Shown: positions 1-64,000, counted from the stretch's first letter. The stretch: DNA of 64,000 bases from Bilabrum cf. latius (GCA_965178125.1 OZ237743.1:496001-560000), one strand, 5' to 3'. Notes: generated by a model from the letters alone, not told the origin. Numbers and translations: made by a program.

Positions 1-2968
1 CCCGCCGTGCCCATTGAGGCCTCGGAGCCGACGGTGCGCACCATCTCAGAGTAGGCAGACCCGGCGCCGTGGCTCTGTGACTCGGCCGACACCGCCCCGG
101 GCTGCTTGGCCATCCGCTGCCTTGACGTCTTTGCCTGCCGTTGGCGACCTTCCTGCGCCACGGCGTCCGCACCCGGCGAGAAAATGCCAGGCTCTCGCCC
201 GTGCCCCTCGCTCTCCGAGGAGTCCCTCTCCTGCATGTGCAGCTCCACGCCCACGCCAGACGCCAAGGCCTGGGTGCCCTCGGCAGATGTGAGCATGGCG
301 GCAGTGCCGTCACCGCCACCATAACCCAGGCCACCGCTCTGGTCTGCGACCTGGCTGCGGTTCCCATCGAACGAAGCCGACCTGCGGGCGGAGTTGTTGG
401 AGCCCCTGGCGCTGTCGGGCGCGCGGCCACCCGCCTGAAGGGAGGCCGCGCTCGAGGCTCGTCTGGGCGAACGCCGCGCGTTGATGCCGGTTGGAAGCCC
501 AGAGAGGGGCGGGATGCCAGTCTTGTGCGACACGAACGGCGGCACGCGCTGCAGCCCCGCGGCACCGGCAGTCCTCCCAGCACCCAGCATTTCCCCCGCT
601 GACTTGCTCTGCAGCATCCTTCGCCCGGCAGAGGCGCCCTTTTCCCTGGAACCAGGCACACTCGTCACGCCCTTGTCCCGTTCAGTGTGCTGTGGATCCA
701 GGGCCCCGCCCCTGTCCACCATCACTTCGTCTCGCAGGAACGAAGGGCCTCTCCCTGCCAGTCTGGGCATGTAGAAGCTGACACCCTGCGTGGGCAGCCC
801 GTCCTCGTCCAGCCCAAGGTCACCGTCACCACCAACCTGCAGTCTCCTCTCGCCTACACCACTCCCATCTTCATCATCTTCCCGATCCTCCTCATCGTCG
901 TAGTCCACTCGAAGCCGCCCCGCCTCCATGGCTCCATCCTCGACACCCTCCGCAGACCGATTCTCGAGGATCCTCGGCACCGCCGGGTCTACGTCCTAGA
1001 GGGCTCGGTCTACCCTGTCTCGGTCCACGTCCCCGTGCAAGGACACGGTCATACCTCGAGAGCCGGAGCTCTGGTACGGCCGGGCCTCGACACCGCGCAT
1101 GCCTGTCGGGCTCGCCGCAGACAGCGGGTTGACGGGCGGCTTCCCCAAGCGTCCAGCCCCCCCGCTCTGATTGCCCGAGGTGCTCCCGCTTCCAACCCTC
1201 TTGGGACCCGCCTTGCTGGTGTCGTCACTGGACCGGTTGGTGGCGGACTGAGACTCGCTCGATGTTCCCACGCCGACTGAGCGAGCCGGTGCCGTGCCGG
1301 TGCCAGCCCCGCCTGACCGTGAGGACGAACCAGACACCATGCCAGGCCGTCCAGGACGCATCGAGGCGCGCAAACCAGGTGAACGGGCCTGGTGCTCAAT
1401 ATCCAGGGAGATCTGAGCCACCGGCATCTCTGTCGTTGGGTCCCGGCCCACGCTGGCCAGCGGTTCGCCTGCTGCCTGCACCGTCTCGCCCTCTGGCCCG
1501 AGCTGGGTCTGGTGCACGACCCCGTAGGTAAATCGATTCTTGCCAAGGCGTCCCTGCCTGCCCGCGAGTTCGCTCGATGCGTGCTTGGTTGGTGTGAGAG
1601 GGGTGCCGTCCGCGCCCTGGTATGGCGAGTGTCTCCCGCCTACTCCCGGGCTTGCCCGGCTTCGGCCCTGCCTGAGTCCTTGCCTGTCGCTCTGGTCAAG
1701 GGCTGCACTGGCCGATAACCGCTTTTCTCTGGCTGCAGGGGAGCGCTGCTTGGGATACTCGCCCGAACCTGCCCTGCCAGCCGCACCCACCCCGAAGGAG
1801 CTAGGGTCCATCGTGTTGGGTGCGCGTGCCGAGGGGCTGCCAGACACCTGTAGCGGTGGCAGGCCCGCCCTCCTTCCACCGTACGAACCGACGGAATTCG
1901 GGCCGCCCCCGCCGACCGTTGAGCCGTCAACCACGATCTCCCCCTCGCGCGCGAACACAATCCGGTTGGCCTCCTCGATCGAAACACGCCTGGAGCGTCT
2001 GGATCGCCGCCGGCCTCCCGGGCCCGCGATCGTGGAGTGCTCGGAGCCGGTTCCCGTCCGGTAGGTCAGGTGTGTGTCTGCTGTCCTGGGCCGAGAACGC
2101 ATGGAGATGCCGGCGGCAGTCACTCCCCTCTCTCCGATACCGCCGGAGGCGCCCGGCCTGCTGCTTTCCTCGTGGACGTCTATGGCCGTGCCGATTCGGG
2201 ATCCTGTCCCTACCCTGGAGCCGGTGGTGCTCCCGGCGCCCGTGTTTGCTGCCCCGCTGCGAGATGCGTGTGACAGCCGCGACAGCCGCTTCCTCGAGGC
2301 CTGTCTCTGCTGCTCCGTCAGCTTGCCCGCCTGACTCGCCGCCGTGGCCTCGGCTGCGTCCCTCGCTGCTTCCTGCATCTGCCCCCATTCGCCTCCGAAA
2401 AACGCGGCGTCTGTTCCTCGGGGGGTGATGTGGCCCAGCGCCCTGCCGACTCCCTCCGCCGCCTGTCGCACCTGGTCTCCTCTGTGCCTTCTGCTGGCGA
2501 GCGAGGACCGGCGAGGCGTCTGACGCAGGTTGGCTGACTATCGTCGGGCGCCTCGCATCGCGGCTGGTGACTTGGGCAGGCCGATGCTGCTGGCAAACGA
2601 GCGCCGGCGCGGAATGTCCTGCCCTGTAGTTGCATCCATCCCAGTGTTGGTGTGAATGCTGTCCAGAGGTTTCTATGCATTCGCGGCATGCAGCCGAGGC
2701 CCATCCGAACTGCTGCCACCGGCGGAGATCTGCCGGACTCGGGGTGGTATGCCGCCAGCCGCGCTATTGTCAGCCACCCTGCCGGTATCCCGGCTATCCT
2801 CGGAACCTGCCAGGCCAGGGAGCCTGGCAAGCCCGCCCCTCTACTGCAGCCCGGGCGCCGCTCCTCCCACGCGGTGGGCCTGCTCAGCAGTAACCTCGAC
2901 AATCCCGCTCACATAACCACTAGCAGTTGCGTCAGCACCAGGCGTGGCCTATTGCGCCTGTGCCTCCA

Positions 2969-3031
<63 letters not shown>

Positions 3032-6000
3032 AGTAGTGGTTTTGCTACCGCCTGGTACCAGCCGCGCCCTCGTTTATCGTGTGAGAGGGAAAGTTCAGTC
3101 GCATGCCACCAGCAGGATCGTCCACCGCCTGGTACCTGTGGTCCTGGTCCGGCAGCCAGTCCGGGTGAGTGGACCGGAACTGGTATCTCTTCTGCTAGTC
3201 GCTGAGGTGCCTCTGCTGCTGCTCGAAGCGCTTCTGTTCCTCCTGCGCCGCGAAGTAGTCCTCCCGCAGCTTTGGCGCTGCGCTCGACTTGGCCGTGTCT
3301 TCGTGCACCGCCCCGATGATCTCGAATTGGTTCTTGTACTTGCGCGAGTCCAGGTCAACGACTCGGAGCACCCACACCTCCTCTTCCTCCACGCCGCAAT
3401 CGCAGCACGCCCCGCCCCTGGCCGGGAAGCAGCACGGGATGCACTGCCGGCAGCACAGCGGCAGGCGCACCCGTCCGCAGCAGCAGGTATCGGCATCTTC
3501 CAGCCCCAAGTCACCCGAGCTCAGGTCCCTGCTGTCCCCCGCGCTAGACGACGACCGCCGGCCTTCTCTGTCGGCAGCGCAGCAACCGCCCGCCCTGCAC
3601 CCGCACCAGTCGGGCAGGCACACCACGGTATCCGCCCATACGTCCCGCAATCGCATCGCAGACGCGAGCGCCAGCAGAGGCACCAGCGCGAAGGCGAGCG
3701 CGTCAAGGATCGTGGAGAAGGCAGGCAGCCACGGGTAAGGCCAAGCACCGCCGCGAGCAAAGCCCTGGCCCGCGCCCACCACGGGCTGCGACCCGAGGTA
3801 GCCCGCCCTCCCTCGACTGCCCACCTGCCAGTCCCATCGCCCCGTGGATGCAACGGCCCACCGCCAGGCCTGTGCCCTGGTCACTGCAGCCGCTTTCGAG
3901 AGGCTCGCAAACGGGCTGTACCTGGAGGAAGGCCCCTCGATCCCTGCCGGTGGTGTGGCCTCCAGCATCAGCAGCCAGTGGATGGACCGCGGCACCGACA
4001 CTGGGGAGGAGATGGGCGGTGACACCGTGCCACCCGTGGAGGTGCCTGTCACGGCGGGAGGGACCTCTGCCACGACCACTGGTAGCAGGGCTGCCGCAGG
4101 CTACCCGTGGAAGTGAGAGAGGGGGGAATACCCGTGGCTTGCGAGGCTCCACTCGTCCTGTGCTGTTGCTCTGGAGAGCAGCTAGTCCAGCCCAGAAGAA
4201 CTGGCCAAATCCGCACCGGTCCACATGTCGTGGGTACTGCTGTTGAATGCAACCCCAGCGAGATCCACAGCCACGTCACCGGAGGAGGCACTGCCGCCAG
4301 GCCCGGACAGCCTGGCCAACCGGGCCAGCACCTCTTCCTGGCGGCCCTCCACGCTCCCAAAGAAATTAGTCACAGTGCCACGACCCCCGAACGAGTTGCA
4401 AGTGTTACCATCCACAGGCACACCGATTCCGCCCCACCGCAGCGCTGGGTGGCCGCAGTTGCCAGCGTACCGTCCGAATGCGGCGTCGGCTCCTGAGTCC
4501 TTCGCGCCCTCGCTAGCCTGACCCGCGTGCCATCGAGCGCCTGCCGATGCCCGCGCCGCCAGGAAGTGTGCGGCCTTTGAAGACGCCGCGCCATTGGTAC
4601 CCACGGCTGTCCGCGCCACGAGCGCAGGCGGCACGTCGCTGAAGCCTCTAGCGAGAGAGTCCGACATGCGGGGCAGTGCAAGAGCGGCAGTGAGGCCGTG
4701 CTCGGGGCTGGCTAATTGACCGACGCTTCGATTCCTCCAGTGGGCGACCCACGCCTCGGCGTCGGTGCCGACGGTGGCAGCGGGCACCAGCACCGCGGGA
4801 TTCCCGCTCGCGCCGATCCCAGCCGCCATGGCTGCAATGTGAGCGGCCGTGAGGTCACCCGCAGCCCCGCTGCCGTAGGAGCCATCCGTGTCACCAAGCA
4901 CCTGACTCAAACCCCCCACATCCAACCCCTCCCCTGCCGAGCCAGAGGCAAACCAGCGAAGCCCTCGAGCAACCGCGTTCGAGGCAGACCCGCCTTGCAG
5001 GGTCACGGCCACGGCCATCCACACCTCACCAGCCAGAACGACCGCAGACAGCAAGCAAGCGGCAAACAGCACCGTGCTTGCAATCGATACTACTCCGAGC
5101 TGTTCGCGCACGCGTTTCCTCGCGTCAGGCCATGCAGGATGCACCAGCATCGCACCCGGATACATGCGCGACCACACGCTGCCCAAAGGATCTCCGCGGC
5201 TGTCTCGACCGGCAGGCTCCCCCGCCGCCCCATCGGGCCCCTATTCGCCCGATGCACCAGCCCCGCCGCCCATCCGAAAGTGCAGGTGCCTCTGGGTCGC
5301 GAGATAGACGCCCCCGTCCGGCTGTCGGATGGTCAGGTCCGGCGCAGCCCCCCTTTCTCTCCTTACGCCCTGCTCGGGTGCCACAGAAGTGTTGGTTGTG
5401 TCGCCCTCGTCCACGTATGCACCTGCATTTCTCATTTGCTCCCTGTCTTTCCTCTTCCTCTTCCTTGCCTCTTTTTCGAACTGCTGCAGCGCGATGCGAG
5501 CCTTCTGCGTGGCTCTCGAGGCGACGTGATGCGGCTGGGCCCCGAAGGCTTCCTCCTTCTGCTGATCGGCCATGGCCTAGCCGCGCTGCTGAGGGTAGCC
5601 CGCGGGCTAGTGCTGCTGTGAGGCGGCGTCGGCCGCACCAACTGCTACCGTGCTCGGGCCAGCAGCAGTGCGATGCACCACGTCCTGCGTGCCCGCCGGT
5701 TGCGGCGAGATGGGAGGCAGCTGCCTGCGCCCGTAGCTGCTCCTGGGCCCCGGCCCCGCCAGGGCGGCGGCTACTCGATCTGCCTGCCTTGCTTGCGGCT
5801 ACTATGGGCGGGCAGCCGCATCACCGTGCTGAGCGCGGTGCTTATGGATCATGGTGACCTGTGGCGCGGCTCCCAGCGCGGCCCGGCCGAGCAGGAGCTG
5901 CCTTCTGCTGTCGTCCTTCAATGGGAGCTGCCTTTGGTCGCTTCCACCGAGGGCCTGTCTTTGGCCAGCACCAGCAGCATCCATAGAGCCAGGCCGGCCC

Positions 6001-8108
6001 TAGTAGCCATGCTGCTGCTGCTGCTGCTGCTGCTGCATAGGCTAGCTCGGCGCGTTTCGGGAAAGAGGAGACTGCATCCTCGTGCCAGTGCCAGTGCCAG
6101 TCCCGGCGTTAGCCACGCCCGACCCCGTGGGTGACGAGGCCCAGCCAATAGCACCAAGCGGGGCACCCCCTTCATCGTACTCTGAACCCCTATCGAACTC
6201 CGTCGGAATTCCCTCCAGAGTCAGGTTTCTCTCCTGCCCCCCATCTATCCGTCGCAACTGCGGGTTCCCGATCGAGTCCCAGTCGATGGCGGGAAGCTCC
6301 GCCTCCTCTCTCTCCGCCTCCTCCTCCTCGCGCAACCGCCTGCTGCGAGCCTCCGCGTCGGCCACCCCCTGCAGGTAGCCGTTGGCCTCGGACATCACCC
6401 GCCAACCGAACCACGTGCCCGCGAGTGCCGCGACCAGCTGCGGCAACACGAACAGGACCTTCACGATCCCGGGCCCCTCAAGCACACAGCCCTCCACGCC
6501 GGGCCGCCACACGCCCGTCGCCCCGGCAAAGATCCCAAATACGATGGTGGACAGCACCCACAGCAGCAAAAAGAACCTGGCGCGAGCGGCAGCGTAGGGC
6601 GCCAGCTTATCCCCCTTTAGCTCAGTGTTGCTCATGGCCTCTTTAAGCATGTCCAGCAGCCAGATCATGACGAGCCTGGCCCCTAGGGCACAGGTCCAGG
6701 CCAGTACGCCCTGGGTGGCGCATCCCCCGCCCACCGTAACCCTGACAGTCACTGCCTTGGCCACGGCCTGAAGCGAAGACGCCACAGCCACCCGTTCGGG
6801 GTCCAGGGCAGTCGCCGAGTCCGCAGTCCACAGAGCATCAGGGGCTACCCCGGCCTGCGATCCGATGCCCGCTTCGATCGTGCAAGCGGGAAGCGGACCC
6901 GGAATCGGAATTCGCCGCGCCGCCTCGCCCTCGGCGGCCGGCAGCCCCGCCTGCATCTCTGCGGCCCAACCTACCCCGGCCGTGTCCCCGAGGGAGTAGT
7001 GGTTCACGCCGCAGCCCGCCGCCCGCAATCCGGATACACCGGGCTGTCCAGTAGCAAACCGGAACACTTCCTCCCGCAGGGCATCGGCGGCTGCGGCGTC
7101 CAGTCCAGAGGAGCCGGGGCGGCCAGCGGATGCGATCCAGCCCACGGCAGCCACCTGTAGCACGCCCCCGACCACTGACGCCACCGGAAACACGATGGAG
7201 GGCCATTTTTTGAACCGATCGTCGGCTGCCATGAGCCGAGCGCCGGCGCAGATGGACGCGATGGCGGCAAGCAGCACGGCGATTGGGACCACCACCATCC
7301 AGGCGTTGATCCACGACGCAAGGGGACCGTCGGTACCATCGGGTCCCGCCCACGCCCAGACACCGTTTTCTAACATGACTTCCTGCCCAGTTTCACCAGA
7401 TCCCGCAAGAACGGCGCCGCTCGGACCGAGCAGGCCGTCCATGTCCTCGGTGCGAGCATTGCTTGGCCGAGAACTGTTTTGCGGCGCCACGCTCCCCTTG
7501 CATCCCTCCAAGACTGCCCGCAAGGCACTCCCATCTCTTCCATCCCAGTGCAAATACTATTTGGTTATTTCTGAAACTGTCCTTCTCGCGTCTGCGAGAG
7601 CTGTGGACCTCGTTGTCGCGGTCTCAGCAGCTGCCACAGCGAGCTCGTTCGGGTCAGGCGACAGCAGCAGCGCGCTGGCACTCCCACCTCCACCCAGCTT
7701 CCATGAAATACAAGACAGATCATGTCTAGCATCGACTTCCACCGTACTTGCCCCGCTGGTCGCCAGCACTATTTGACTGCGAGTTGTGGAGCTACCGAGC
7801 AACTAGGGCTCGCCCCATTCCAACGGACTTGTCGCCGTCTGCAGCTCTGAATGCCTGTCCAGAGCAGCTTGGGAAAGCATAGAGGCATCCAAGCCGAGTG
7901 CACTGATTAGTCCAGGCACCAGGACTACAGATTGCTGTCCAGATGTACCTTGCATCTTCCGTTCAGCCGGGCCACGAACGGCCATTTCGAAGCCCTCTTT
8001 TGCCTTTCTCGGTTCGTTTGCTGTAACGGTCACTACAACAAAAAGTAGCGACAGAATTCCAGCCTTCGGCGAAGCTGCATTAAGCCTAGCCTCCGCACCC
8101 ATCGCCAT
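1..8108 (-). CDS. Very large (>2700 aa, runs off window start) 7TM GPCR-like membrane protein with signal peptide, huge low-complexity loops and polyQ C-terminal tail
   Basis: ORF fragments 7803-8132, 7557-7802, 6042-7553, 5802-5984, 5241-5573, 4182-5186, 3195-4079 and 996-2471 share one frame and each ends in TAG (18 in-frame TAG counted). N-terminus MAMGAE..GILSLLFVVVTVTA is signal-like. Seven hydrophobic segments, a TM3-start motif CATQGVL, a Cys in the loop before TM5, and a Cys cluster after the last helix. Confidence 0.65.
2970..3032 (-). repeat. (CAG)20 polyglutamine tract directly preceded by an in-frame TAG
   Basis: Plus strand (CTG)20 at 2970-3029 followed by CTA at 3030-3032; the minus strand reads TAC TAG CAG CAG... 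Confidence 0.95.
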
Positions 8109-8420
8109 TTGCGAGGTTGTTACTGATTCCACGGCGTTTGCACGGATTCAGGGCCCAAAGGCTCCCCTTGATCCAAACCGCAGGACAGATTGCCTGTAAT
8201 AGCTTCAGCAGTACGTCAACGTATGGCAAAGTATTGCTTGAAATGCCGACCAGCTCATCTCCACCGTCGCCCAGGCCCATTTGTAAAAGTTGGTCGCACG
8301 TCGTCCGGAGCTAGAATCAAAAGCAGTGAGAATTTGCTGGTCAAGTTACTCATAAGAAGGGATATAATTTGTGTTAAGCACTCTGCGAACTTGTGAAAGT
8401 GTATCATTTGTATCGGATTC

Positions 8421-9449
8421 ATGCGAAGAATCGGTTCAATATGCGGGCGTTGGGGGGGCACGTCAGCGGTGCTACGAGCCGGGGCGGGCTCTTTTCGATC
8501 CTTGAGCGACATTTCTTCCTCGATAGGAAAGAGAATACCATCATTGATAGGACCAAATGCGTATCTTACGGTAGCCAAGGTCTGGGATACATTTGTTGGG
8601 AAGACTAGGCGCCTGCCAACGGCTGGCGAGTGTTTACGATTAAGAAGGCCAGAACGACAGGTTATTTTCCATTGCTAGCCGAACGACTCGGCGCATGATG
8701 CCCTTAAAATAATGCTGGAGAACGAAATACATTGCTTGATCGTTGCAGTCGCCGCAGAGGAGGAGGTTGAAGCGTAGCCCGAGGGTTCCCACGGTGCTAG
8801 CGATGCTCTCGAGCAGCAACAACCGGAATCGTCCCGGCTGCAGCACAGACTAGAGCCGCCAATACCCCCAGATGCTTCCCTGGACGTAAGAGGCATATTC
8901 ACAGAGACAGATTTTTTGCGGCAGGTTGCACTGCCATCTCTGGATGCCCGCGAAACTCTCGTGGAGAGCGTGATGACGCCTGTGCAGCACCTCGCGTATG
9001 CCACGGAAGACAACGATGTTTCGTCGTGCTTGCAAGCCATGGCTGCACTAGGCTGCCACCACCTTCCGGTTCTTTCCCGCGAGGGTGACGACCTGCTCGG
9101 CGTCCTTTACATTGGCGAGCTGGTCGGCCTGACGAGGAAGCACCTGGAGGAGGCTGTGTCTGCGTGGGAGCTGGGGCAGGGGGTCGGGCGGGCCATCGGA
9201 GAGGCTGTGGAGCGGCTCCGAGCACCCAGCCGAGCAAACGCCGCCGGTGACTCTGCTCCCGGATCTGCTAGGGACGCAGCAGATGCTGCAGATGCCCCGA
9301 GCGCCACCATGCAAGCCGACCCGAAGCAGCAGATCAATGAACAGACGGATGGAGCCCGAAACCATGCGGCAGACACGCTGCGACACGCAGCGGGCGTTAG
9401 GTAGCGCCAAGAAGAGCGATAGCACGCCGATAGTAGCAGGAGCAGGTAA
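8421..9449 (+). CDS. Tandem CBS-domain protein, probable mitochondrial targeting peptide (CBSX3-like)
   Basis: Reading through 4 TAG gives VIFHC*PNDSAHDALKIMLENEIHCLIV (CBS1), GIFTETDFLRQV..VESVMTP and MAALGCHHLPVL..LLGVLYIGELV (CBS2). Arg/Ser-rich N-terminus. Ends TAA. Confidence 0.8.
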
Positions 9450-9610: not shown

Positions 9611-10726
9611 TCACGAGGTGGTGCCACCAGCACCAGCCCCTCCCATGGCAGCTGTAACGGCCTCCCCCCCACCGCCCCGCTCAGATATCACACCCTCCGC
9701 CCCTTCGCCTAGGTTGGCCGCCCGCACCTCGCGCGCCCAAGCAATGTACCTAGCCCTCTCTTCCTTGGCACCGGCCTGCGACACGGCGCCGCGCAGTTCC
9801 GCAGCCGAGGCCATCCTGCCCTCGTTGGCCATAGTCGAGGCGAGGACACGCATGGACCAGCAGGCGAACACGCCGCAGTCCACCGAGTTGTCCTGCTGGG
9901 GATATCCGGCTGCTTCCAGCACTGATGGGCAGGGGCGGCGCGTTGGGGCAGAGGCGGGGGCAGGGGCAGGGGCAGGGCCAGGAGCAGGGGCAGGGGCAGG
10001 GGCAGGGGCTGCTGGACCGCCTGCCCCTGCCCCCGCCGCTGCACCTGTCTTTACACTGAGAAACTCTAGGTGTGCTAGCACGGGCCACACAGCACTGGCT
10101 GCAGCCTCCGCAGCTGATCGATTCCCCGGCAAATGCGAGTCAAAGTGTATCAGCACCCACCCGTCGCCGTCCACGGCAGCGGCGTCCCTCGTGGGCAGTG
10201 CGCCCTTGCGAGATGATGCGGGCGCCTTTTCTGCGGATGGAGCAAGTGAGGAATAAGTACCGGATCCTGTACCTGCGGCAATCGCCATCTCATGCCTGTG
10301 CGGCGTCTCAGCGGCTTCGGGCACCGCCGCACGAACCGCAACAAGAAGGCTCCAATGCGTGCCTCCAACAGAGGTAAAGTCCCTTTTATTATTGACTGGA
10401 AATAAAATCATCTTTACGGGCGTTGGATCTACCTTTTCGCCGCTGCTTGACTTGGAGCAGGTGGATAGCAGCTCATCGAAAGCATCTTTCAAATCCTCTT
10501 CGTCTCCGTCGGCCATCTGAGCGCATACCATTGCAGCAGGGTCTACCATATATACATGGTCTCTGTGTTTGGCTACAGCCATATCCTTTTTGCACCATTC
10601 TTGCACGAAAGTAACGTTCTCATCAGTCAACCAGCTATTTGGGCGTAGTGCGTCTATATCCTCTTTGCTTAGCTATGCAGACCCCAGCTTACAATACTAA
10701 TCACCACGTAGCTCCATTCTGATCAT
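9611..10726 (-). CDS. SENP8: NEDD8-specific/Ulp1-family cysteine protease (SENP8/DEN1-like)
   Basis: LSKEDIDALRPNSWLTDENV, ILFPVNN..GGTHWSLLV, HFDS, PQQDNSVDCGVF (His-Asp-Cys triad motifs). The ATG (10726 or 10717) is reachable only through 2 TAG. Ends TGA. Confidence 0.85.
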
Positions 10727-10837
10727 GATTGAACGCTTGTTTATGCCCAGTCAACTGCAATATGCGAAATACCAAAGTGGCAATTCGGAGCCTTTCGCAT
10801 CAGCACCGGAACCCGTTCCCTGCCGTCATAAGTGCAC

Positions 10838-16100: not shown

Positions 16101-16284
16101 AGGTACTGTGCTATACTGCACCTGTAGCCTGGGTGGCATCATACTGATGCCAGTAGATCTCGGTATCAAAATCGTTGCTCGCAGAAGCGTGATCATTCGC
16201 ACCGGAGGCAATGATCAACTTAGCATGCGTAATTTCCTACAACAGACAAGCTGCAACAGCAACATATGATAGAATAGTACGCAT
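13195..16284 (-). CDS. Secreted/luminal FkbM-like (Methyltransf_21) SAM methyltransferase with long N-terminal region, copy 1
   Basis: Signal peptide MRTILSYVAVAACLL; GQIWQDRWV, GGFFVEAGAVDGLAYSNT, WSGVLVEA, IHFLSLDIEGLEWEVL, AIEHN. One frame with 9 TAG. Ends TGA. Confidence 0.8.
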
Positions 16285-16341
16285 GACCAGAAAATTTGTG
16301 GAATGACAGGGGTTTGTACAGGACAACACGCGCTCAATCCA

Positions 16342-16836
16342 GTTAACAGAGAGAGACGATATTGATATGAGAGTGAGAGACAATGGAGGTGTTGCACGAC
16401 GCCCGCGGCGTGAGGTGCTTGCACCTTTTAGGCTGAGGTCGCGCGCTGGGCACAGCGCTCGGGCGAGTAGACACGTCGTGGGGCGTGATTCAGGTGAGGG
16501 AAAAGGGGGGTGGGTGGAATGGAGGAAAGGTGGACCAGGTGGACAAGGTGGACGGGGTGCATGAAGCGGGAGGCACAGACAGGGCAGGAATGTGGGAAGG
16601 GGGTGGTGAGGACCGGAGGGGTTCCGGATTAGAATGGGGGTTAGGAGAGGATACAATCTCCCAATCCAGATGCCGTCATCGGAAGCATCGGCAGTCACAA
16701 ATAAGTCGGACGAGGCGCTGCAGCCGTAGGCGACAAGAGAGCGAGTTGGAGCACTCTGAATTGTGACCAAGTGTGACTGATAGCGAGACAAGAAGTGCTG
16801 TGTACAGTGTGTGATCTCAGCAATTCAATACCAGAA
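16342..16836 (-). mobile_element. 495-bp insertion with 6-bp target-site duplication AATCCA (putative non-autonomous or 5'-truncated retroelement)
   Basis: AATCCA at 16336-16341 and 16837-16842. The paralogous copy has the empty site (TTCAATCCACTGGTGCC, ~20342). Strongly pyrimidine-rich on the minus strand. Confidence 0.75.
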
Positions 16837-17139: not shown

Positions 17140-17200
17140 ATTCACGACCCAACGGGTCATCCTCCCTGCCATTGCCCCACAACCCACGACAAACTAATCG

Positions 17201-20200: not shown

Positions 20201-20293
20201 ATCATTCGCACCGGAGGCAATGATCAACTTAGCATGCGTAATTTCCTACAACAGACAAGCTGCAACAGCAACATATGATAGAATAGTACGCAT
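17201..20293 (-). CDS. Secreted/luminal FkbM-like methyltransferase, copy 2
   Basis: Near-identical to copy 1 at offset 4006 (4009 after a 3-nt in-frame indel near 20161). 8 in-frame TAG. Ends TGA. Confidence 0.8.
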
Positions 20294-20457
20294 GACCAGA
20301 AAATTTGTGGAATGACAGGGGTTTGTACAGGACAACACGCGTTCAATCCACTGGTGCCTCGGCCGCGCGTTGAAAGCAATAACCGGAACTTCTTTGAAAC
20401 GCCACCACGAGTCCGTTCTTGCTCTCTCCCGTGTCGCTATGCAGCATATAACGAGCT

Positions 20458-27201: not shown

Positions 27202-27233
<32 letters not shown>

Positions 27234-44244: not shown

Positions 44245-44282
44245 ATAGTTACGCGATTGATGCAGAACCTAGACTATTTAAA

Positions 44283-49700: not shown

Positions 49701-49829
49701 AACCCCCTTTTCTCGGAGGAATTCAATGATCGCGGCATCGGTTTGCAAAGAGGCAGACACCTGTCTTGCAACGGCACGAATAGCATTTGATACCTAATGT
49801 GCCGACAATTTTGATACGAACGCTTCCAT
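46743..49829 (-). CDS. PUS3: tRNA pseudouridine(38/39) synthase (TruA family, Pus3/Deg1-like)
   Basis: YVALKIAYFG, YSRCGRTDKGVS, FSARFSCGYRVYRY, GSAFLWHQIRC. The conserved C-terminal KPSYQLAPETPLCLHHC and YIPLAR motifs lie beyond in-frame TAGs. 4 TAG. Ends TGA. Confidence 0.9.
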
Positions 49830-49956
49830 ACTACTTGCCTGCGTGTGTTTCTTGCGCTTTGGCAAATATTTGATCCGAGTTGCCTATTTTTCCTACATCA
49901 AACGCGCTGTGAACCACGAATAAGAAAATCGAGTTGCCAATTTGCTTAACAACAGA

Positions 49957-52836: not shown

Positions 52837-53971
52837 TTACTTCTTCTCGGGGTAAGAGGCCGACATGAGGATGCCGCACTGCCCGTGGGGCTTGAAATCC
52901 TTGCCGCGGCCGAGCAGGATGTACCCGTGGTCACCCCAAGACGCGCCCCAAGAGTTCTTCACGTTCCAGTAGTCCTGGCCGCCCATGGTGCCGTAGCCGA
53001 CGGCAAGCACGCCGTGGTCGAGCTGAGTGCCGCATTTGCCGGTCATCACACCGCTCTGGTAGAACTGGAACGAGCTCTGGTCGGCCTCGACGGCGATCGA
53101 CACGGGCTGCTGGGCCACAGCAGACTTAAGAGCCTCCTCAGAATCCTGGGGCACATCTTTGAATCCCGTAATCTTCGCCTTGGCGGGGCACTTGTCCGCC
53201 TCGCCGAGCCCCTTCTTGCACTCGCACTTGCCGTCCTTGGCGGTGTACGGGTACTCCTTCTCTCCCGTGATGCCGTCGTTCGAGATGATGTACTTGAAGG
53301 CATCATCCATGAGGCCACCGTTGCAGCCCATGTTGCCGAAGGAGCCGGAGCAATCCACGAGCTGCTGCTCGGAGAGGCTGGGCAGGGAGCCGGTCTTGAT
53401 GAAGGAGATGCCCTCCACGGAGCCGGTGGTCGAGAACGACCAGCAAGAGCCGCACTGTCCCTGGTTCTTGATGGGGGTCACGGCACCTGCAGTCTCAAGT
53501 GTAGAACTTAAACACGGAGGCGCTTGGTGCACGCAAATGATACACAGAATCACAATAAGACTACGCAGCTAGCCTGTGTATCAGGCACCTAGCTACTGAC
53601 TCACCCTTGGCGGACCAATCCACCGAAGCGGGGGCGGCAGCCTGCACGCCCTTCTGCAGGAGATGGGTGGCCACGGGGTTCGACTGGCGTCCGGCGTACT
53701 TGAAGCCGCCGATGAAGCGGGCAGCGAACTCGTCGGCGGTCAGGTCGGCGTGCTCGTTCAGGCCCATGGTCCAGGATAGGCCCTTGGCGTTGTGCGCCTC
53801 AACCATGTCCGCGTTGGCGCGGAAGATCTCGAATCGGTGGAGAGCCTCTTCGTTCGAAGCGTATTTCTTGCCGTACTGGGCAGTCCACTGGGCTAACTGA
53901 GTCATATCAGCTTCAACGCTAGAAGCGTACACAGAAGCGGCAAGAAAAAGCACTGCAGACACAGTCTTCAT
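52837..53971 (-). CDS. Cathepsin L-like papain-family cysteine protease A; exons 53971-53605 and 53486-52837
   Basis: Signal peptide, ERFNIN-like propeptide, [25 protein letters not shown]. 118-nt GT-AG intron, phase 1. No TAG. Ends TAA. Confidence 0.95.
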
Positions 53972-54135
53972 GGCACAGACTCTTGTTTTATGCTGGATTG
54001 ACGGGATAATCAGAGTCTCAAGTAGCGTGTATTGTTATGTATTGTTGCGTTCAGTTTATTAATCTAATATAGCACACAACAAACTAATTCAGAATCTCGA
54101 GACCGTCCACTCATTCCAGACATCGAAAAGAAAAC
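53972..54135. promoter_or_regulatory. Probable AT-rich bidirectional promoter between the divergent cathepsin genes
   Basis: 164-bp AT-rich spacer between two opposing ATGs. Confidence 0.55.
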
Positions 54136-55698
54136 ATGAAGACCATCGCCGCCGTGCTTGCCATCGCCACCACCGCGTTCGCTGCCAGCGTGACTGACCG
54201 CATGACTCAGTTCGCCCAGTGGACTGCCCAGTACGGCAAGAACTACGAGCAGGATGAGGCCGTGCACCGCTTCGAGATCTTCCGCGCCAACGCGGACATG
54301 GTTGAGGCGCACAACGCCAAGGGCCTGTCCTGGACCATGGGCCTGAACGAGCACGCCGACCTGACCGCCGACGAGTTCGCTGCCCGCTTCATCGGCGGCT
54401 TCAAGTACGCCGGACGCCAGTCGAACCCCGTGGCCACCCATCTCCTGCAGAAGGGCGTGCAGGCTGCCGCCCCCGCTTCCGTGGATTGGTCCGCCAAGGG
54501 TGAGTTTCTTTTAGTATATAATTTGCTTTGCTGTGGTTTTACTGCCGGTTCGAGCGCGGGCACGGCTGAAATCGCCCGAGTCAATCCGGAAAGCGTCCTT
54601 GGCTGCGCCCACGGGACGTGTTTTCAAGGGCAACTTGCCCCGGTACTCGGCGATTCGACCGCCCATGTGGAATTTGCTTGATCATTTGTAGTGTCTATTT
54701 GATTGTTAATTGTATACCCCTCGTGGGATGCTCTGGAATGTCCTGCAATGACCGCGATCCTTGTACTTTGTGTTGTGGCGCGAGCATTTTGCGTCGATTC
54801 GCTTCACCTTCCAAGTTTTTGACTGGAAGCTCGTATGACTGCTGAAAGCAACCGCACATCAGAGTGATTAATGTATTTAACAGTATATTTGTGGAGTTGT
54901 TTGGTGTTCGAACGCTTCAGAAGTGTTCGTGTGGTCTCGGAAAGAAATGGTGCCGATTGGCCCCTCGCACTTGTTGTCGTCGGCTCTGATCGGAAGGAAC
55001 AAGTCTACTCCACACTGTTTCTCGTTTCCAATATTGTTAATTGATTTATGTTCGCAGGCGCCGTGACCCCCATCAAGAACCAGGGACAGTGCGGCTCTTG
55101 CTGGTCGTTCTCGACCACCGGCTCCGTGGAGGGCATCTCCTTCATCAAGACCGGCTCCCTGCCCAGCCTCTCCGAGCAGCAGCTCGTGGATTGCTCCGGC
55201 TCCTTCGGCAACATGGGCTGCAACGGTGGCCTCATGGATGATGCCTTCAAGTACATCATCTCGAACAACGGCATCACCGGCGAGGCCGAGTACGGCTACA
55301 CCGCCGCGGACGGCACTTGCAAGTGCACTTCCAACCCCTCGGCCTGCCCCGTGAAGGCCACTATCTCCGGCTTCCAGGATGTGCCCCAGGATTCCGAGCA
55401 GGCCCTCATGTCCGCTGTGGCCCAGCAGCCCGTGTCGATCGCCGTCGAGGCCGACCAGAGCTCGTTCCAGTTCTACCAGAGCGGTGTGATGACCGGCACT
55501 TGCGGCACTCAGCTCGACCACGGCGTGCTCGCCGTCGGCTACGGCACCATGGGCGGCCAGGACTACTGGAAGGTGAAGAACTCTTGGGGCGCGTCTTGGG
55601 GTGACCACGGGTACATCCTGCTCGGCCGCGGCTCCAACTTCGCCCCCCACGGGCAGTGCGGCATCCTCATGTCGGCCTCTTACCCCGAGAAGAACTGA
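54136..55698 (+). CDS. Cathepsin L-like papain-family cysteine protease B; exons 54136-54499 and 55058-55698
   Basis: Same motifs as copy A. 558-nt GT-AG intron at the identical position. No TAG. Ends TGA. Confidence 0.95.
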
Positions 55699-56162
55699 GC
55701 GAGTACGCTTCGGCGGACGCTCGTTTATCTTGGCTGATAACGAGAGCTGACTGAGCTCCTGTAACCCTCCCGTGACGACCGTGAGGTTGTCGGCTGGTTT
55801 GCAGGGGTGCAGGCAGGATTCCCATCTTGCATTTGTTTGCGGTCCGGGGTACTCCAAGGATCCGCGGCTGTCTATTGGACGGTGCTGGTCTTTCCTCGGT
55901 CCGCTACCCCAAGTAACTTTTGGGCGGTGGTGATGTTGTTTGGCTTGTCATATGTTGACGTACAGACCATGTTTCCCCGTTCAATGCGTATCCGTATCCG
56001 TATCACTTCACCATTGCAAATTCCATTGAAACGCGGAGGCATAACTAACCTTGTGCATCGCGTCTCCGAGGAGAGGAAAGCAAGGTGCATCTGGCAAATC
56101 CGAGCAACCGGAAGCACTGCGCAGTTCGTCCAGTTTCCGGGCCGGCGCATATCCACGGCGGA

Positions 56163-58340
56163 ATGTTGGACTACCTTTGCGTTTTTCGTAGGAACGGAGT
56201 TGTTGTTTATGACGAGTCGAACTTTAGCGAGTTTGGGGATGGTGCACAGCTGCCTGACGCCGTCACGAAGCTTGTGTCCAATGAGCTCATGCGGTCTTCC
56301 CAGCCCCCACTGACTGGAAACCGCGACATTGAGCCGGCTCAGCACGTCTGGTGGAGATTCAGCCCCCAGAACCTCGGATTGGTATTCGTGGCGGTGGCAT
56401 CCAGGCACCTGGTTGACAACTTGAGGTGGATTGATGCCATGTTGCAGCTGTTTGGGAACGAGGTTGCCAAATTGTGCAGCGGAAGCTCAGATGATATCCT
56501 CAGGTAAGAATACAGTACTAGTATACCTGAGGAATTCTTGGGGCTTGCTGTCTCGAAGGAACAGCCGTTTTCTGCTGCTTTATCGCCTGCTCACGTCTCC
56601 ACCACATACCATCAAATGCCATCGTCCCGCAGGGACAATGCAAAAATGAAGGCAGTTATGATGTCATGCTTGAGACAAGCATCATCCGCAGGGCTTCCGA
56701 ACATATCTTTGGCTGCCAAGGGACAGGGATCGAGTGCAGGGCGGTCTCAGTCGGACAAGCCACCGAAAGTGGAAGCTCCAAATGGCGGTGGTGGTAGGCC
56801 ATTGGATAGTCCCAGTCGCCCATCTGTCAGTGCATCGAGCAATGCATCAGTAGGAGGCTTTGCCAGCGATGGGCCGGATGAATTTGACCCTGGCAGCATG
56901 TCCATGGGAGGCATGGGAGACATGGGGGGTGCTCTTGGGATGGGGGGACCTTTTTCCATGGGGGGTACTCTAGCAAGGACGGCATCCGGCTCACCTCGGC
57001 GTGCTGGTGGAGGTAAAGGCAAGGGGAAGGGAAAAGGCAAAGGCAAGGGCAAGGGCAAGGGAGGTAAGGCAGCACGCACGTGGAGCGGGCAGGTAGGTGG
57101 ACCCAAGGGGGAGGTCGAGGATCTCGACATGGCCTCTAAACTGGGACCAGGTGGCGGAGGCACTGGCGGAGAAGAAGCTCTCGGCGCGGAGGAGATTGGC
57201 ACGTCCGGTGCTGCGGCCTGGGATGCTGCAGAGGAGGACGAGGGCGATGGCGAGGGAAGTGGCTCTGGGGCCTCCAGCATGCTGGGCGGGTTTTTCTCCT
57301 CCATGACGAGCGCGTTCACTGGTAGGGACCTGACCAAAGAGGACCTCAGCGGGCCCCTAAAGGCCCTGCGAGCGCACTTGATCCAGAAGAACACGGGTCC
57401 GGAGACTGCCGATTTCCTCGTGAATGCAGTGGGCGCCCAGCTGGTGGGACAGAGGCTGCCCGCGCTCGGAGACGTGCAGGCCATGGCGCACAAGGCCCTC
57501 AGGGAACAAATCAGCGGGATCCTGCACACCCGTGAGATCGACCCGCTGGCCGACGCCAAGCGCAAGAGGGACGAGACGGGGGGCAAGGAGCCTTACGTCA
57601 TCGCTTTCTGTGGGATCAACGGCGTGGGCAAGTCCACGAGCCTGGCAAAGGTGTGCTCCCACCTGAAGACCAACGGCCTCTCGCCCATCATCGCCGCCGG
57701 TGACACCTTCAGGTCGGGTGCCGTGCAGCAGCTCGAGAAGCACGCCAGGAAGCTAGGCGTCGATGTGTTCTCTCGCAAGGAAAAGACAGACCCTGCCAAG
57801 GTTGCCGAGTACGCCGTGATCGATGCAAAGGCCAAGGGCAACGACGTGGTGCTGGTGGACACCTCCGGGCGGATGCAGAACAACACGCAATTGATGAGGG
57901 AGCTGGCGCGGCTGGTGGTGCGCTGTTCCCCAGATCTGGTGCTCTTCGTGGGCGAGGCCCTCGTGGGCGGGGACGGGGTGAACCAGCTGCAAACCTTCCA
58001 CAAGGAGCTGCTGCAGCTGACAGCGGCCGAGCAGGGCTCCCGCAGGATGGAGCGTGGCGTGGACGGGATCTTCCTCACCAAGATGGACACTGTGGACGAC
58101 AAGGTCGGTGCCGCTCTATCCATGGTGCACCGGACCAGGATCCCGCTCGTGTTCGTGGGCGTCGGGCAGCGGTACCCAGATGTGAGGCGGCCGTCGCCCC
58201 CTGCACTCGTCTCGCTTCTGATGCGGCCCGTGGTGGCTCCAGCGGGGGGAGGCGCCGCCACTGGCGGCGCGGATGACGACGAGGTGGCGGAGGCGATGGC
58301 TGCCGGCGCGACGGCTGCGGCCGCCGGCGGCTCTTTCTGA
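56163..58340 (+). CDS. SRPRA: Signal recognition particle receptor alpha subunit; exons 56163-56503 and 56633-58340
   Basis: SRX start MLDYLCVFRRNGVVVY; GTPase motifs GINGVGKSTSLAK, GDTFRSGAVQQL, DTSGRMQ, FVGEALVG, TKMDTVDDKVGA, GVGQRYPD. A phase-2 GT-AG intron removes an in-frame TAA. Ends TGA. Confidence 0.93.
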
Positions 58341-58743: not shown

Positions 58744-61700
58744 ATGTTCACTTGGCGGAGCTGCGGAGGACCTGCACTTGGAACATCCCTCTATGTCCTT
58801 GCAGCCATAGTATGGACAGCTCAAGGGCAGGATTATTCAACTTTCATGACGATCTCTGGCATATCTCCGACGTAAGTTGGTTGCGCCTGCGTCTTTGTGA
58901 ATCTGAAGTGATGCAGGCGTTCACTCGAGCATACCGCCACCTGTTTTGAAGGGTGATCCCTAGCGCCTCACCTTACGAATCTCACCTTACGTATACAAAT
59001 GATTCATACTTGACCATAATTGTGCCGCAGGAGGGGCTCTGTTGCTGGAGGGACCAGGGTCACGATCACAGGCTCGGGCTTCAACTTGGACGGCCGGGAA
59101 GGCTCCCTAGCAGTGTACTTTGGGTCTACGGCAGCACAATGCGAAAGTTACTATCAGACGGATAGGCAGCTTGTCTGCTATTCGCCTTCCAGCCCAAGCC
59201 TACGTTCAGGATGGCAAACAATTTCGATTTCTGCCGTGGCGGTCGACCGAGGTATTCAAGCCAGGTGTGACAGCGGAAACTGCAAGTTCTATTTCGACGC
59301 GAACTACCGGCACACGCCACATGTTCGTGACATAACACTCGGGGGGAGCGCGGGGGATGTGTTCAAGTACAGTGGGAATCTGCAGACTAGAGATTTTGAG
59401 CAGCACAGCGCGAGGGTGGGCGGATTCAACTGCGACGTGACAGAAGACCTAAATGCAGACCCTGATCTGATCTTGCAGTATAATGGAGCGCTTGGGACTG
59501 TATCATGCAGAGTGTCCGACGAGATGGAACCGGGACGGCACAACGTCTCCATTGTCACGAGCGGCGAAGGAGGAGCAGCCGTGCAGTATCGCCGCACCAA
59601 GCAGGCCGACCCCCTCACGGGAGAGGTGTGGCACTTCACATCGCATCCATCGGTACATTCATTGAGCGTCTCGTCCACCGGCACGCGCGGAGGGGCTCTG
59701 ATTCGACTCGAAGGCACCAACTTTGCTCGCAAACCGATGCATAACAACGTCGAGCTCGCTGGTGTCCCCTGCGACGTGACGGCGGCAGCTCTGGACGGAA
59801 CCTGGGTCGAGTGCACCACCGGAGAGTACAACCAGTCGGCGAATGCCGCGCCCGAAACCGCGGGACGTGCCCCTGCTTCGCCCCTGCCAGCCGCGATGAC
59901 CGGCTCGGCGCCGGGGCTGGAGCTCGTGGCCGGTGGTCGGGGCTGGACTCGCAGGGCGTACAGCAGCTATTCATACCGGCCCTCCGACCTCATTGAATCC
60001 GTCCCACCCGCCCTCGAAGCCGGCCAGATGGCCCACCTCCTCTCCTCTGACGAGATGCATCGCACGGGCTTCCAGTGGGAGGGCCTGTTCGAGGCCCCTC
60101 ACAGCGGCTGGTACACCTTCAAGTTCACCAGGGTGGACGATGACGCCTGGATGTACCTCTCTGACGACGAGTCGCCCGACAACCTCCGCCAGATTGCCAC
60201 CATGCCGTGGACCTCCACAGACGAGTTCCGGTACCCGGGGCAAAGATCCGACCCCATCCGGCTGGAGCGAGGGGAGCGCCGGTTCTGCCGGGTGCAGCTG
60301 TGGGAGTACGGCGGGAAGGAGTACGTTTCCGTTGGCGCCGAGGTCGAGCTGGACGAGGACGTTCGGATCCACCCCACGGCGCTGGCGCACCGGGGCGTGT
60401 TTGAGGTGCAGGAGATCAAGCTGTCGACGGACGTGCAGAGGGAGGTGCACAGGATCGAGGTGAGGGCGCCGGAAGGCAGCAGCTGGAGGCTCAAGGTGCT
60501 GGGCAGCGACGGGAACGAGTACAGCAGTGCCGCGCTGAAGCATGACGCGAGCCATTACGACGTCCAGAACGCCTATCAGGCCACTCGTGACGGAGACAAC
60601 AACGTCGCAAGCGGCTGCTACGGCATCCTCGTGTCCCGGGACGAGCTGGTCGCTGACGACAGCAGGCAGCTACTGGCAGGGCACCGATATGACATCACCC
60701 TGCGGTGCGCAACGGCATCCAGCTGGAGACCCGTGCGGCCGGAGGCCATGCCCGGGTCACCTCCCATGCATGTGTTCCCCGAGGGCAAGGGCAGCAGGGC
60801 TGGCGTTGTGCAGGGTGCCTCGGAGCCTCTGTCCGGTTCTTTCCGCATCTCGATCGACGGCGTGCAGTCTGAGCCGCTGGGCTTCGACGCCGGGAACTAC
60901 GACGTGGAGCAGGCTCTGCTGGGCATGCCCGGAATCCACAAGGTGGTGGTGAGCAGGTATGCGGAGCCCATGGACGGCTCCTCGTGGAGAATTACTTTCT
61001 TGGGGCCCCATGCGATTGACGTGCCCGATATTCTCGTGGATGGCGCTGGGTTGCTCACAGGCACGAACCGCAGCGCAACTTGTGCCACTCTGCGCCACGG
61101 GTCCAACAGATCCATCGACTATGATCCCATTCCGGGTGATTTCATGCGGGCCTAGCTGCGGGTGCCGCTTCGATTTCGCAAGGGTGGATCGGTTGCAGTG
61201 AATGGCTCCTATGCCGCGCAGGCTGGGCAAGGGGACGCCAATCGCACGGGGGTGCACATTGGCGCCGTGGTAGTCAGGTCCAATGGGGTGCTCGCAGCGT
61301 GCGAGTCGCACAGCGCACAGGTAAACGAATCGACGGGGGCCATGCTAGGGGCCTAGGGTTGTCTGTTCTCGTACGATGCCTCGATGACCCCGAGCATTGC
61401 AAGCGTGTCACTGCTCGGGGGCGCCTCCAGCGCATCTCCCGGAAGCAAGCTCCTCATCCAAGGGACGGGGTTTGTTCCGCACGACCGAGAAAGCGGTCTA
61501 GATCCGCAAGCACGAACTATGGTCCGGTTTGGCACTGCCGAATGTACTGTGGACACATCAACGGCTACGCAGATCACGTGCACCATGCAGGGCGGCTCAG
61601 CCGGAAGCTTCCTTCCAGAGGTCACTGTTGGCATGGGTAGGGGCAGGGCTCTGGTGGAGCCAGCTGTCATTCCCGTACAGATCGAGGCATCCGTGGACTC

Positions 61701-64000
61701 TGTGTCCCCGTCTTTTGGCTCCTCCGCTGGAGGCGCCCTGCTCACCATCAAAGGCAGCGGGTTCTTGCCGCTCGAGTATGACAGCGAGCTCGTGGGGTCA
61801 TATACGCAGAGTGTCGCCGAGCAGCAGGTTGTGATTGGAGGCAAAACGTGCATTGCACTGCAAGCAAGCGCTTCGGAGATCGTCTGCGTCGCGCCTGACC
61901 TGACCCTCTCAGCCGGGGCCTCAGTGAACGTGTCGGTCGGTGCGGCCAACCTCGCCGGTGGCTACACCCCTCGGGCGGATCGGACGCCATCTGTCGATTC
62001 CATGTTGCCCACCCAGCTGCCGTCCGCCGACACAGGTGATGTCCAGCTGCAGCTGAGTGGTCTCCCGACGGGGGCTGCTGCTGCCAACTTGTCAGTCTCG
62101 TTCGGGTCCAGAGAGTGCCGCGTCCTGTCGCTGTCACCGGCAGGTCTCGTGACCTGCGAGCTGATCCGCGCACTTCCATTGCAGATGCCTCAGACCGCGG
62201 TGCTACCCTTGGTGTACGTGTCCAACTGGGGATACGCACAGGTCGATGAAACCGATGTTGGGGGAGGTCTTGACACTGGCTTCCGGATCGACGGCCTATC
62301 TGCATCCTCCGGCGGGATGGCTGGCGGCGCCACGGTGACCATCACCGGCCATGGGTTTGGGTCATCGGTGACTGCAAATGATGTGCAGTTCCGCAGCTCT
62401 GGAAACAACGAGACCGGAACTATCACGATCGGCTGCGACGTCCAGAACGTGAGCGACGCGCAAATCGTGTGTCAAACTCGGAGCGTGGCTCCAGCTCTTG
62501 CAGCCTCAGCTGGTAGAAGCACTGATGCGCAGCTTTCAGCGGACCTTTCGGGCGAATGGGTCGTGTCGAGAAACGGCATTCAAGCCCAGTCAGCATGCGG
62601 TGGTTCGGCAACGGAGGGCCCTTGCAGCTATACGTTCCGAGCCAGTGAGACGCCGCAGATCCACGGCGTTGTCTTCAACGCCACGGGCATGAAGCTGACT
62701 GTAACGGGATCAGGATTCAGTGTCTCTGCTGGTAGTATGACCGTCAGCGTTGGCGAGGAGGAGTGTGCGTTGCTCGCTTCGCCTCGTGCGTTGGGCGACT
62801 CTAGCTCGCTGGAGTGTCTGGTCCCTGCTGTTCCAGCCGGAACATACCCAGTTCGAGTGCGAGTCGAAGGCAAAGGCTTCGCAAATGCGTCCTCGACTAG
62901 TCCTCCCGAGATCATCGTGCCTCTGCTGGTGACCAGCATCCAGCCGTCAACCGGCTCTAGCCAGGGCGGGCAGCGCGTGGTTGTCCACGGCTCCGGCTTT
63001 GCCACCGGTCCTCGTGCAGGCGAGCTCAACGTCGTTCAGTTCATCGGGAGCGAGCTCGGGAGTTCCAGCACCAAGGCCGCCCGGGTGCTTGTGCAAGGGG
63101 GCGACGCGCCCACCAGCACGCGCCTAGTGATTGTGACCCCGGCATTCAACAACGCGCCGGGTCCCATGTCTGCCGACGTCCGAGTGAGGGTGCTATCCGA
63201 CTCGAGCCAAGGCTCATCAGCGGATGGGGTGCAGCAGGAGTGGCAGGAAGCCATGGTCTCACGGGCGCACACAACGGATGTGATTGACACGGCTGCAACG
63301 CCGCATCTAGAGGGCGTCACGCCTGAAAACGGGGAGGATGGTACGGCCATCACGCTCGCAGGGGCTGGGTTTGAGTCCACCATGCCTGCAGGGAGCAGCG
63401 TGTCAGTGGGCGGTGCATCTTGCAACGTGACAGCTTGGAGCGACACGAGCATTTCGTGCTCGCTGCGGCAAGTCAGAGCCGGGGTCCACCTGCCTAAGGT
63501 CACCGTGGGGGGGAAGGGCCTTGCGTTTCCACTCGATATTGTCACGTTCACCGCGTCGCATGCTGTCACTGGCATGGACGGTGCTGCGACGGGGTACGGC
63601 GGCGGCGCTACTGTCGAGCTGCGTGGCAAGGGCTTCCCCGCAGTGACACGAGCTGAAGCGAGCGCCGCCTACGCCCTGAGAGACGAGCTCATCGCCCAGG
63701 GCCGTCCTTTCGCAGCCGCCGTCGAGCCGCTTCCCAGCGTCGACGTATGCGGCCAATCGTGCGAGGTCATCGAAAGCACGTATAATGCAATTTCGTGCAA
63801 GGCACCGGCCTTGCTGAACGCGCAGGCCCTCTCGCAATTCAATGCCGAGGTGCCAAGGGTGCTGACTGTGCAGGGGGAATTCGCGGATGGCGAGCTGCTA
63901 GAGGAATCTATGAGCAGCCCAAGCAACGCGATGGACGGCGATGTCGCCACAACGGCTGCATCCAATTCTGCCGGCTGCCACATCGGGATGGACCTAGGGC
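58744..64000 (+). CDS. Fibrocystin-L (PKHD1L1)-like surface protein with multiple IPT/TIG repeats and a PA14 domain; partial, exon 1 58744-58871, exon 2 from 59031
   Basis: Signal peptide; splicing yields ISGISPTRGSVAGGTRVTITGSGF (IPT/TIG). PA14-like WEGLFEAPHSGWYTF..VDDDAWMYLS. Further SVSPSFGSSAGGALLTIKGSGF-type repeats follow TAGs at 61153 and 61354. Apparently open to the window end. Confidence 0.85.

Follow-up and report, generated by a model that had tools for sequence, protein, structure and literature searches.

Gene content and reading frames of the window

The sequence analysed here, called the window throughout, is a stretch of 64,000 nucleotides from Bilabrum cf. latius (GCA_965178125.1, OZ237743.1:496001-560000), in which almost all long genes contain in-frame TAG codons. 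It is eukaryotic nuclear DNA, carrying genes for the ribosomal protein RPS14/uS11, the SRP receptor alpha (SRPRA), two cathepsin L proteases, an AGC kinase and the pseudouridine synthase Pus3. The window has a G+C content of 61%, and the genome behind it is GC-rich and intron-poor, the cathepsin L genes carrying GT-AG introns. Read with the standard code, its longest stop-to-stop frame measures 881 codons. When TAG is freed, i.e., read as a sense codon, stop-to-stop frames of 2,715, 2,253, 1,660, 1,313 and 1,293 codons appear, and the same frames open when the window is read under NCBI table 15. Freeing TAA alone leaves the longest frame at 881 codons and freeing TGA alone brings it to 941, so that frames of more than 2,000 codons are obtained with TAG only.

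In all, we counted 109 in-frame TAG codons in 17,741 codons across 17 long frames, each taken from its first ATG and including two FkbM paralogues and a repeated element, while internal TAA and TGA are both absent (0 and 0). An initial annotation, made from the sequence alone, had put the number at about 100 in 14 genes, close to the present count. At least one TAG is found in 16 of the 17 frames, with up to 21 per gene, scattered across the gene body and upstream of essential domains. The TAG codons make up some 0.6% of the codons in frame, similar to the TAG frequency in the off-frames. When these stretches are read in their two off-frames, TAA and TGA account for about 2% of codons, and each open reading frame (ORF) shows, per frame, 1-10 TAA, 1-18 TAG and 5-46 TGA. 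The absence of TAA and TGA in frame and their presence off-frame imply that selection excludes these two codons, and not TAG, from the frames. We read UAG as a regular sense codon of low frequency in the nuclear genes of this genome.

Two long lineage-specific genes on the minus strand are the richest in TAG: one of 2,715 codons (3..8147), which runs off the window start, has 19, several of them adjoining poly-Gln (CAG) runs, and one of 2,253 codons (23771..30532) has 21. Two FkbM-methyltransferase genes, also on the minus strand, have nine (copy 1; 13195..16824), one of which lies within the FkbM domain, and eight (copy 2; 17201..20557); the domain is interrupted by a TAG in both copies, which are 99.3% identical over 3,230 nt. 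The tandem duplicate (13115-16341 and 17121-20350) comprises a gene of about 1,030 codons, in which the FkbM domain is C-terminal, and there is a one-codon indel between the copies.

In at least 10 genes, homology to Pfam families or to proteins in the PDB resumes in the same frame past the TAGs. In the gene for a selenocysteine lyase (SCLY)/NifS-like enzyme (20458..23829, minus strand; three TAG), TAG 153 lies within the Aminotran_5 match (71-346), upstream of the pyridoxal phosphate (PLP) lysine and the cysteine, and on either side of it the protein can be aligned with the selenocysteine lyases of rat and human. The DUF268 gene (40065..41432, minus strand) has five TAG, three of them in the Pfam domain, and ends with TGA; the invariant SSLEHSGLGRYGD block comes behind two of the domain TAGs, and the alignment with the closest homologue (P0001; 59% identical) is ungapped across the TAGs, at GGV-X-VDF. 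In the Pus3 gene (46743..50024, minus strand; four TAG after Met66), the match to Pus3 in the PDB resumes behind TAG 637, and in a potassium-channel-like gene (44214..46532, plus strand; five TAG; end TGA), TAG codons 69 and 89 are situated at the beginning of the Ion_trans match. In the AGC kinase gene (36018..39899, plus strand), 12 TAG follow the start, and all of them are located downstream of the kinase core; the hydrophobic motif FEGFSF (38292) comes after two of these. Two of the five TAG after the first ATG of an RNase P p30-like gene (11006..13063, plus strand; end TGA) fall within the Pfam match (227-293), which scores 32.8, below the curated cut-off of 35; a PDB search with this protein gave no match.

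The remaining genes with TAG codons are a CBS-domain protein gene (8397..9449, plus strand; four in-frame TAG; end TAA at 9447), a Ulp1/SENP8-like protease gene (9611..10750, minus strand; two TAG upstream of the catalytic domain; end TGA), a WD40-repeat-bearing gene (49924..52692, plus strand; four TAG; end TAA at 52690), and a TIG/PA14 repeat protein gene that runs off the window end (59020..63999, plus strand; two TAG upstream of the TIG domains). Without Pfam matches are an open frame of 1,313 codons (30554..34495, minus strand; three TAG, two of them after the first ATG) and the 737-codon frame of the repeated element (41924..44137, plus strand; two TAG after the first ATG). The positions given in the initial annotation, for FEGFSF as well as for the three TAA ends, are all correct, and the motifs that it had placed downstream of TAGs (KPSYQLAPETPL, SSLEHSGLGRYGD, LRGPHDI, the HK of the PLP site and the cysteine in AACHS) lie there in the same frame.

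Programmed readthrough under the standard code would be expected to give rare, gene-specific events at a natural stop codon with a C-terminal extension. We have rejected it: the TAGs, up to 21 in one gene, occur within the body of 16 of the 17 frames, before essential domains.

The SCLY/NifS-like protein has a C-terminal extension of about 750 residues, the last 523 of which (20461-22029, minus strand) are without a Pfam match (E ≤ 0.01). The strings HPQGGGQPSD and CGGTHV may point to an alanyl/threonyl-tRNA synthetase-like editing domain.

Termination codons and TAG in sequencing runs

The ends of 18 genes could be traced: 15 are TGA, three are TAA and none is TAG, so the initial annotation's claim that traceable genes end with TGA or TAA holds for all 18, with TAA at 9447, 52690 and 52837 (the last on the minus strand). 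UGA has thus kept its function as a terminator (15 of the 18 ends; none in frame versus 5-46 per ORF in each off-frame). Several ends are anchored by homology. The genes devoid of TAG are RPS14, SRPRA and both copies of cathepsin L. The paralogues of cathepsin L (copy 1, two exons, 52837..54034, minus strand; copy 2, 54088..55698, plus strand, with a GT..AG intron at 54499-55056) finish at matching positions of their proteins (SASYPEKK and SASYPEKN), and the stop codon is TAA in one gene but TGA in its paralogue. The C-terminus of the DUF268 protein coincides with the end of homologue P0001, and the stop is TGA. The last exon of RPS14 (34877..35473, plus strand) ends GRRGRRL-TGA, residue 157 facing the last residue of the matched solved uS11 chains. 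In the SRPRA gene (two exons, 56049..58340, plus strand; end TGA), the in-frame TAA is, as had been noted, intronic: it is part of the GTAAG donor straight after exon 1. The two cathepsin L genes are arranged head to head with about 50 nt between their first exons, and are 89.8% identical over 660 nt.

In codes where UAA and UAG both specify Gln (NCBI table 6 type), TAA could be merely rare in a GC-rich genome, and it is a point for such a code here that the two codons usually change together (passages in PMC5304391 and PMC11687900). Codon usage makes it very improbable. The ratio of CAG to CAA in the 17 frames is 522:174, from which about 36 in-frame TAA would be predicted if UAA meant Gln, whereas none is observed, despite 1-10 TAA per ORF in each off-frame; this implies that UAA is a stop codon here and not a codon made scarce by GC pressure. 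In addition, TAA ends three genes, including the cathepsin L gene whose paralogue has TGA at the same residue.

The same codon pattern recurs outside the window. A search based on the 2,715-codon gene aligned with fragment P0126 led to a metagenome contig (L001) of 4,764 nt and 63% G+C. Its entire length is a single open frame (L001:3-4763, plus strand; 1,587 codons, without start or end) with 15 TAG and neither TAA nor TGA, which adds 1,587 codons without TAA to the case against a code of the table 6 type. The frame is homologous to the last two thirds of the product of the 2,715-codon gene, with 38% identity over 1,680 columns. This means that the code is not peculiar to a single strain. L001 also contains a 24-residue unit repeated exactly in tandem, with a TAG inside the unit.

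UAG might have a dual meaning, as sense within genes and as terminator in some contexts, for instance near the 3' end of the mRNA; ambiguous stop codes of this type are found in Condylostoma and Blastocrithidia. Some TAGs lie close to the end of their frame (codons 336 and 342 of 350 in the CBS-domain protein gene; 913 of 922 in the WD40-repeat-bearing gene) and could be real ends. With 18 ends seen, UAG may occasionally terminate translation elsewhere, which would count against UAA and UGA being the sole terminators. None of the 18 ends needs a TAG, however, and the ends anchored by homology (DUF268, RPS14 and the two cathepsins) use TGA or TAA. We consider a dual meaning improbable, roughly a one-in-ten matter, and it is compatible with UAG as a sense codon rather than opposed to it.

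Untranslated TAGs would have to be explained as errors of the assembly, lesions of pseudogenes, tiny in-frame introns, or positions at which the mRNA is edited to CAG. We compared the contigs of two sequencing runs over 36000-55999, a section with 32 TAG codons; the counts are from the contig pieces listed. Run X1 is a DNA run and may be the source of the assembly, while run X5 belongs to another study and bears another organism label. The sequencing runs listed for the window include none filed as RNA, and entries with a small share, metagenomes among them, were left aside. Among these pieces, X1 covers 29 of the 32 TAG codons, and X5 covers 23 of the 32 colinearly, with no other letters and no gaps. 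One X5 contig passes directly from 54498 to 55057, leaving out the intron of cathepsin L copy 2 with its GT..AG ends, and X5 also shows 22 A as a loose end after 55984; the X1 listing has neither feature. The intron joint and the A22 end imply that X5 contains spliced, polyadenylated sequence.

On the other side, X5 was classed as "RNA? (probably DNA)" at the level of read layout, and its contigs over the TAG genes may derive from DNA in the library instead of RNA; this is the sole point in favour of untranslated TAGs, and it also tempers what X5 can say for a sense codon. We rate the two runs, from different studies, as good evidence that the TAGs are not assembly errors and as moderate evidence that they are neither spliced out nor edited. 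As to the check for editing and tiny introns proposed in the initial annotation, X5 shows neither joints nor changed letters at the TAGs even though the same run shows a spliced intron. Independently of the runs, homologues align without gaps across the TAG positions, so that excision would delete aligned residues. Pseudogenes would also collect TAA, TGA and frameshifts, none of which is present in the 17,741 codons. That the TAGs are untranslated is accordingly as improbable as a code of the table 6 type.

Three side observations were made on these runs. The X5 pieces end near gene ends where the X1 contig continues, a weak hint from one study. Over the cathepsin L pair, the depth of X5 contigs is in the thousands per contig, versus tens elsewhere, depth not being a measure of expression. 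Of the 186 X1 pieces over 36000-55999, 60 are only 90-95% alike and 29 less than 90%; together with protein fragments P0121-P0128, which match window proteins at 82-93% identity, these divergent pieces suggest that the material also contains second copies that have diverged, be they haplotypes, homeologues or from a sister strain.

The amino acid specified by UAG

The closest comparisons available are six alignments (1,257 columns) in which protein fragments from the database (P0121, P0122, P0123, P0125, P0128 and P0146) match three window proteins with 82-93% identity. In these, Gln of the window stands opposite Gln in 58 of 64 columns, and residues other than Gln do so in four of 1,190. TAG faces Gln at two of three sites: TAG 924 of the 2,253-codon gene in fragment P0123, and TAG 969 of the 2,715-codon gene in the 93% identical fragment P0125.

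Three further observations come from the paralogues, the fragment ends and the neighbouring codons. The shared body of the two FkbM paralogues shows 14 codon differences, nine synonymous and four non-synonymous, the remaining one being codon 837, TAG in copy 1 and CAG in copy 2. Fragment P0128 terminates opposite a Gln of the window. Conversely, P0125 ends exactly at TAG 1322 of the 2,715-codon gene and P0122 exactly at TAG 890 of the 2,253-codon gene, as expected when a gene caller set to the standard code is run on a relative with the same code. TAGs, moreover, adjoin CAG runs, e.g., TAC TAG CAG CAG CAG.

Several results weigh against Gln or are neutral. The third close site, TAG 329 in FkbM, faces Ser, in a patch where five neighbouring residues are all different. 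Amongst more distant DUF268 homologues, column 241 is mostly S or K and column 254 is Q, P, L or T, and P0001, the closest of them, reads Arg at two of the three TAG sites. In a homologue of 49% identity, Pro stands opposite TAG 1349, and the block around it is well conserved. The log-odds summed over the four usable columns of distant homologues place P, S, H and R above Q; the distant columns do not single out Gln because the TAGs occupy variable positions. A likelihood based on the composition of neighbouring residues ranks H, I, E and L at the top, Q ninth and S near the bottom. In the alignment with L001, TAG is paired with many residues (E, P, Q, Q, G and G where local identity is at least 8), by which the residue is not fixed. 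A Poisson predictor of local composition did return Q for TAG at all three scales, but it is poorly calibrated and carries little weight: the true residue came first for four of 32 and five of 32 real codons, and Q was never called for a non-Q codon, CAA being missed as well.

UAG could, then, be a sense codon for another amino acid, with Ser as the main candidate and Leu as another, or be decoded ambiguously. To the one in three close sites that face Ser and the distant columns without preference for Gln, a weak lead can be added for Ser: the first cluster in the Pus3 feature search is mostly chlorophyte. Yet in the close fragments, Ser of the window faces Gln in none of 136 columns and non-Gln residues at large in four of 1,190, while TAG does so in two of three, and the TAG/CAG difference between the FkbM paralogues and the fragment end opposite Gln also speak against another amino acid. 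Leu is found at none of the close sites, and the TAGs flank CAG runs. We regard another amino acid, or ambiguous decoding, as unlikely, somewhat more so than a dual meaning.

UAG thus stands, in all likelihood, for Gln, a reading that rests on few sites: two of the three close ones, one paralogous TAG/CAG pair and one fragment end opposite Gln, all in keeping with the residue favoured in the initial annotation. Its distinction between UAG as sense and UAA and UGA as terminators is very strongly supported as regards sense versus stop. Taken together, we propose a nuclear code in which UAG is a sense codon, most likely for Gln, and UAA and UGA are the sole terminators, the pattern of NCBI table 15, with a probability of roughly 0.85.

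Proposed decoding of UAG and relation to known codes

UAG would be decoded by a tRNA-Gln with the anticodon CUA, one base away from tRNA-Gln(CUG), and the simplest origin of such a tRNA would be a mutated copy of the latter. Reassignment of UAG alone needs the CUA anticodon, as a UUA anticodon would read UAA too; C34 is unable to pair with the A of UAA, which leaves UAA free for termination. The release factor eRF1 would have lost, or be weakened in, recognition of UAG while retaining that of UAA and UGA; changes to this effect would be expected in its N-domain, in the region of GTS, NIKS and YxCxxxF. The same reasoning on tRNA and eRF1 is set out in parts of PMC5304391 for other systems, with the eRF1 changes T32G in Iotanema and L69A in the rhizarian exLh. 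It counts against the proposal that neither the 64-kb window nor L001 includes a tRNA (the window has no Rfam match) and that the window holds no eRF1 gene.

Codes in which UAG alone means Gln and UAA is kept as a stop are reported, in passages of PMC5304391 and PMC11687900, from Iotanema spirale, Protocruzia tuzeti and some phyllopharyngean ciliates. Iotanema, a fornicate, is the nearest parallel to the window: a eukaryote outside the ciliates in which UAG alone is reassigned, to Gln, and UAA is a terminator (PMC5304391), and for which a tRNA-Gln(CUA) and a reduced recognition of UAG by eRF1 are likewise predicted. According to that source, it is known from its transcriptome only and its tRNA was not found, whereas the window is genomic DNA of about 61% G+C and poor in introns. 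The codon table of the window is identical to NCBI table 15 (nuclei of Blepharisma, some phages) and to that of Protocruzia tuzeti and the phyllopharyngeans, as given in sections of PMC11687900; these users are ciliates or phages. With 61% G+C, 64 kb of contiguous genes and GT-AG introns, the window does not resemble ciliate macronuclear DNA.

UAG and UAA are also uncoupled, with UAA as stop, in two other non-ciliate nuclear genomes mentioned in PMC5304391 and PMC11687900, in which UAG means Leu (exLh) and Ser (the green alga Scotinosphaera); the close comparisons of the window, in contrast, give Gln at two of three sites with two indirect indications, Ser once and Leu never. The aphelid Amoeboaphelidium protococcarum, cited with UAR = Gln in passages of PMC5304391, PMC6299283, PMC11687900 and PMC6394959, shares with the window a stop-to-Gln change including UAG in a non-ciliate and differs in that UAA is clearly a terminator in the window; ulvophytes are likewise written as of the table 6 type in the parts of the literature consulted. 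An aphelid affinity of the window would be no more than a lead. Beyond the systems named, our survey, which covered main texts and few subscription journals, found no GC-rich eukaryote outside the ciliates for which UAG = Gln is described.

The affinities of the window proteins, judged by their nearest clusters, are mixed: Arthropoda and archaea for SRPRA; Chlorophyta, Oomycota and Streptophyta for Pus3. The RPS14 scores are nearly flat across ribosomes in the PDB, from 235 to 225 bits in the best 18 rows listed. We tentatively raise the possibility, somewhat short of an even chance, that this is an unreported, independent origin of a UAG-only (Gln) nuclear code outside the ciliates, in a GC-rich lineage, and that the trait is old enough for organisms with orthologues of only about 40-50% identity, as between the window and L001, to have it in common.

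If true, UAG would have been captured against GC pressure, which would favour the route through an ambiguous intermediate over that of codon disappearance. UAA and UAG nearly always change meaning together, and for Iotanema and exLh the question of tRNA and eRF1 was left open for lack of genomes (portions of PMC5304391 and, for the former point, PMC11687900). Here, the tRNA(CUA) and the eRF1 changes separating UAG from UAA would be directly readable from genomic DNA and RNA-bearing runs: the host is genome-sequenced and apparently cultivable, so that the decoding tRNA and the discrimination by eRF1 between G and A at the third stop position would be accessible. A practical consequence is that gene callers set to the standard code break such genes into pieces; since fragments P0122 and P0125 end exactly at TAGs, annotations and proteomes made under table 1 for this organism and its relatives must be badly fragmented.

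Two kinds of repetitive sequence were observed in addition. The repeated element (about 41370-44240) has a summed X1 contig depth of 67-320, compared to about 25-35 in the flanks, and its copies in X1 differ by many variant letters and small indels; TAG codon 676 of the window copy is GAG in most copies. Its protein has no relative among the viral contigs scanned. Finally, (Gly-Lys)n and other low-complexity coding repeats occur in unrelated genes (at 38010-38047, and as GKGKGK near 57000 in SRPRA) and, in every run, cause contigs to break and to be falsely joined over long distances, e.g., from 38036 to 50949.

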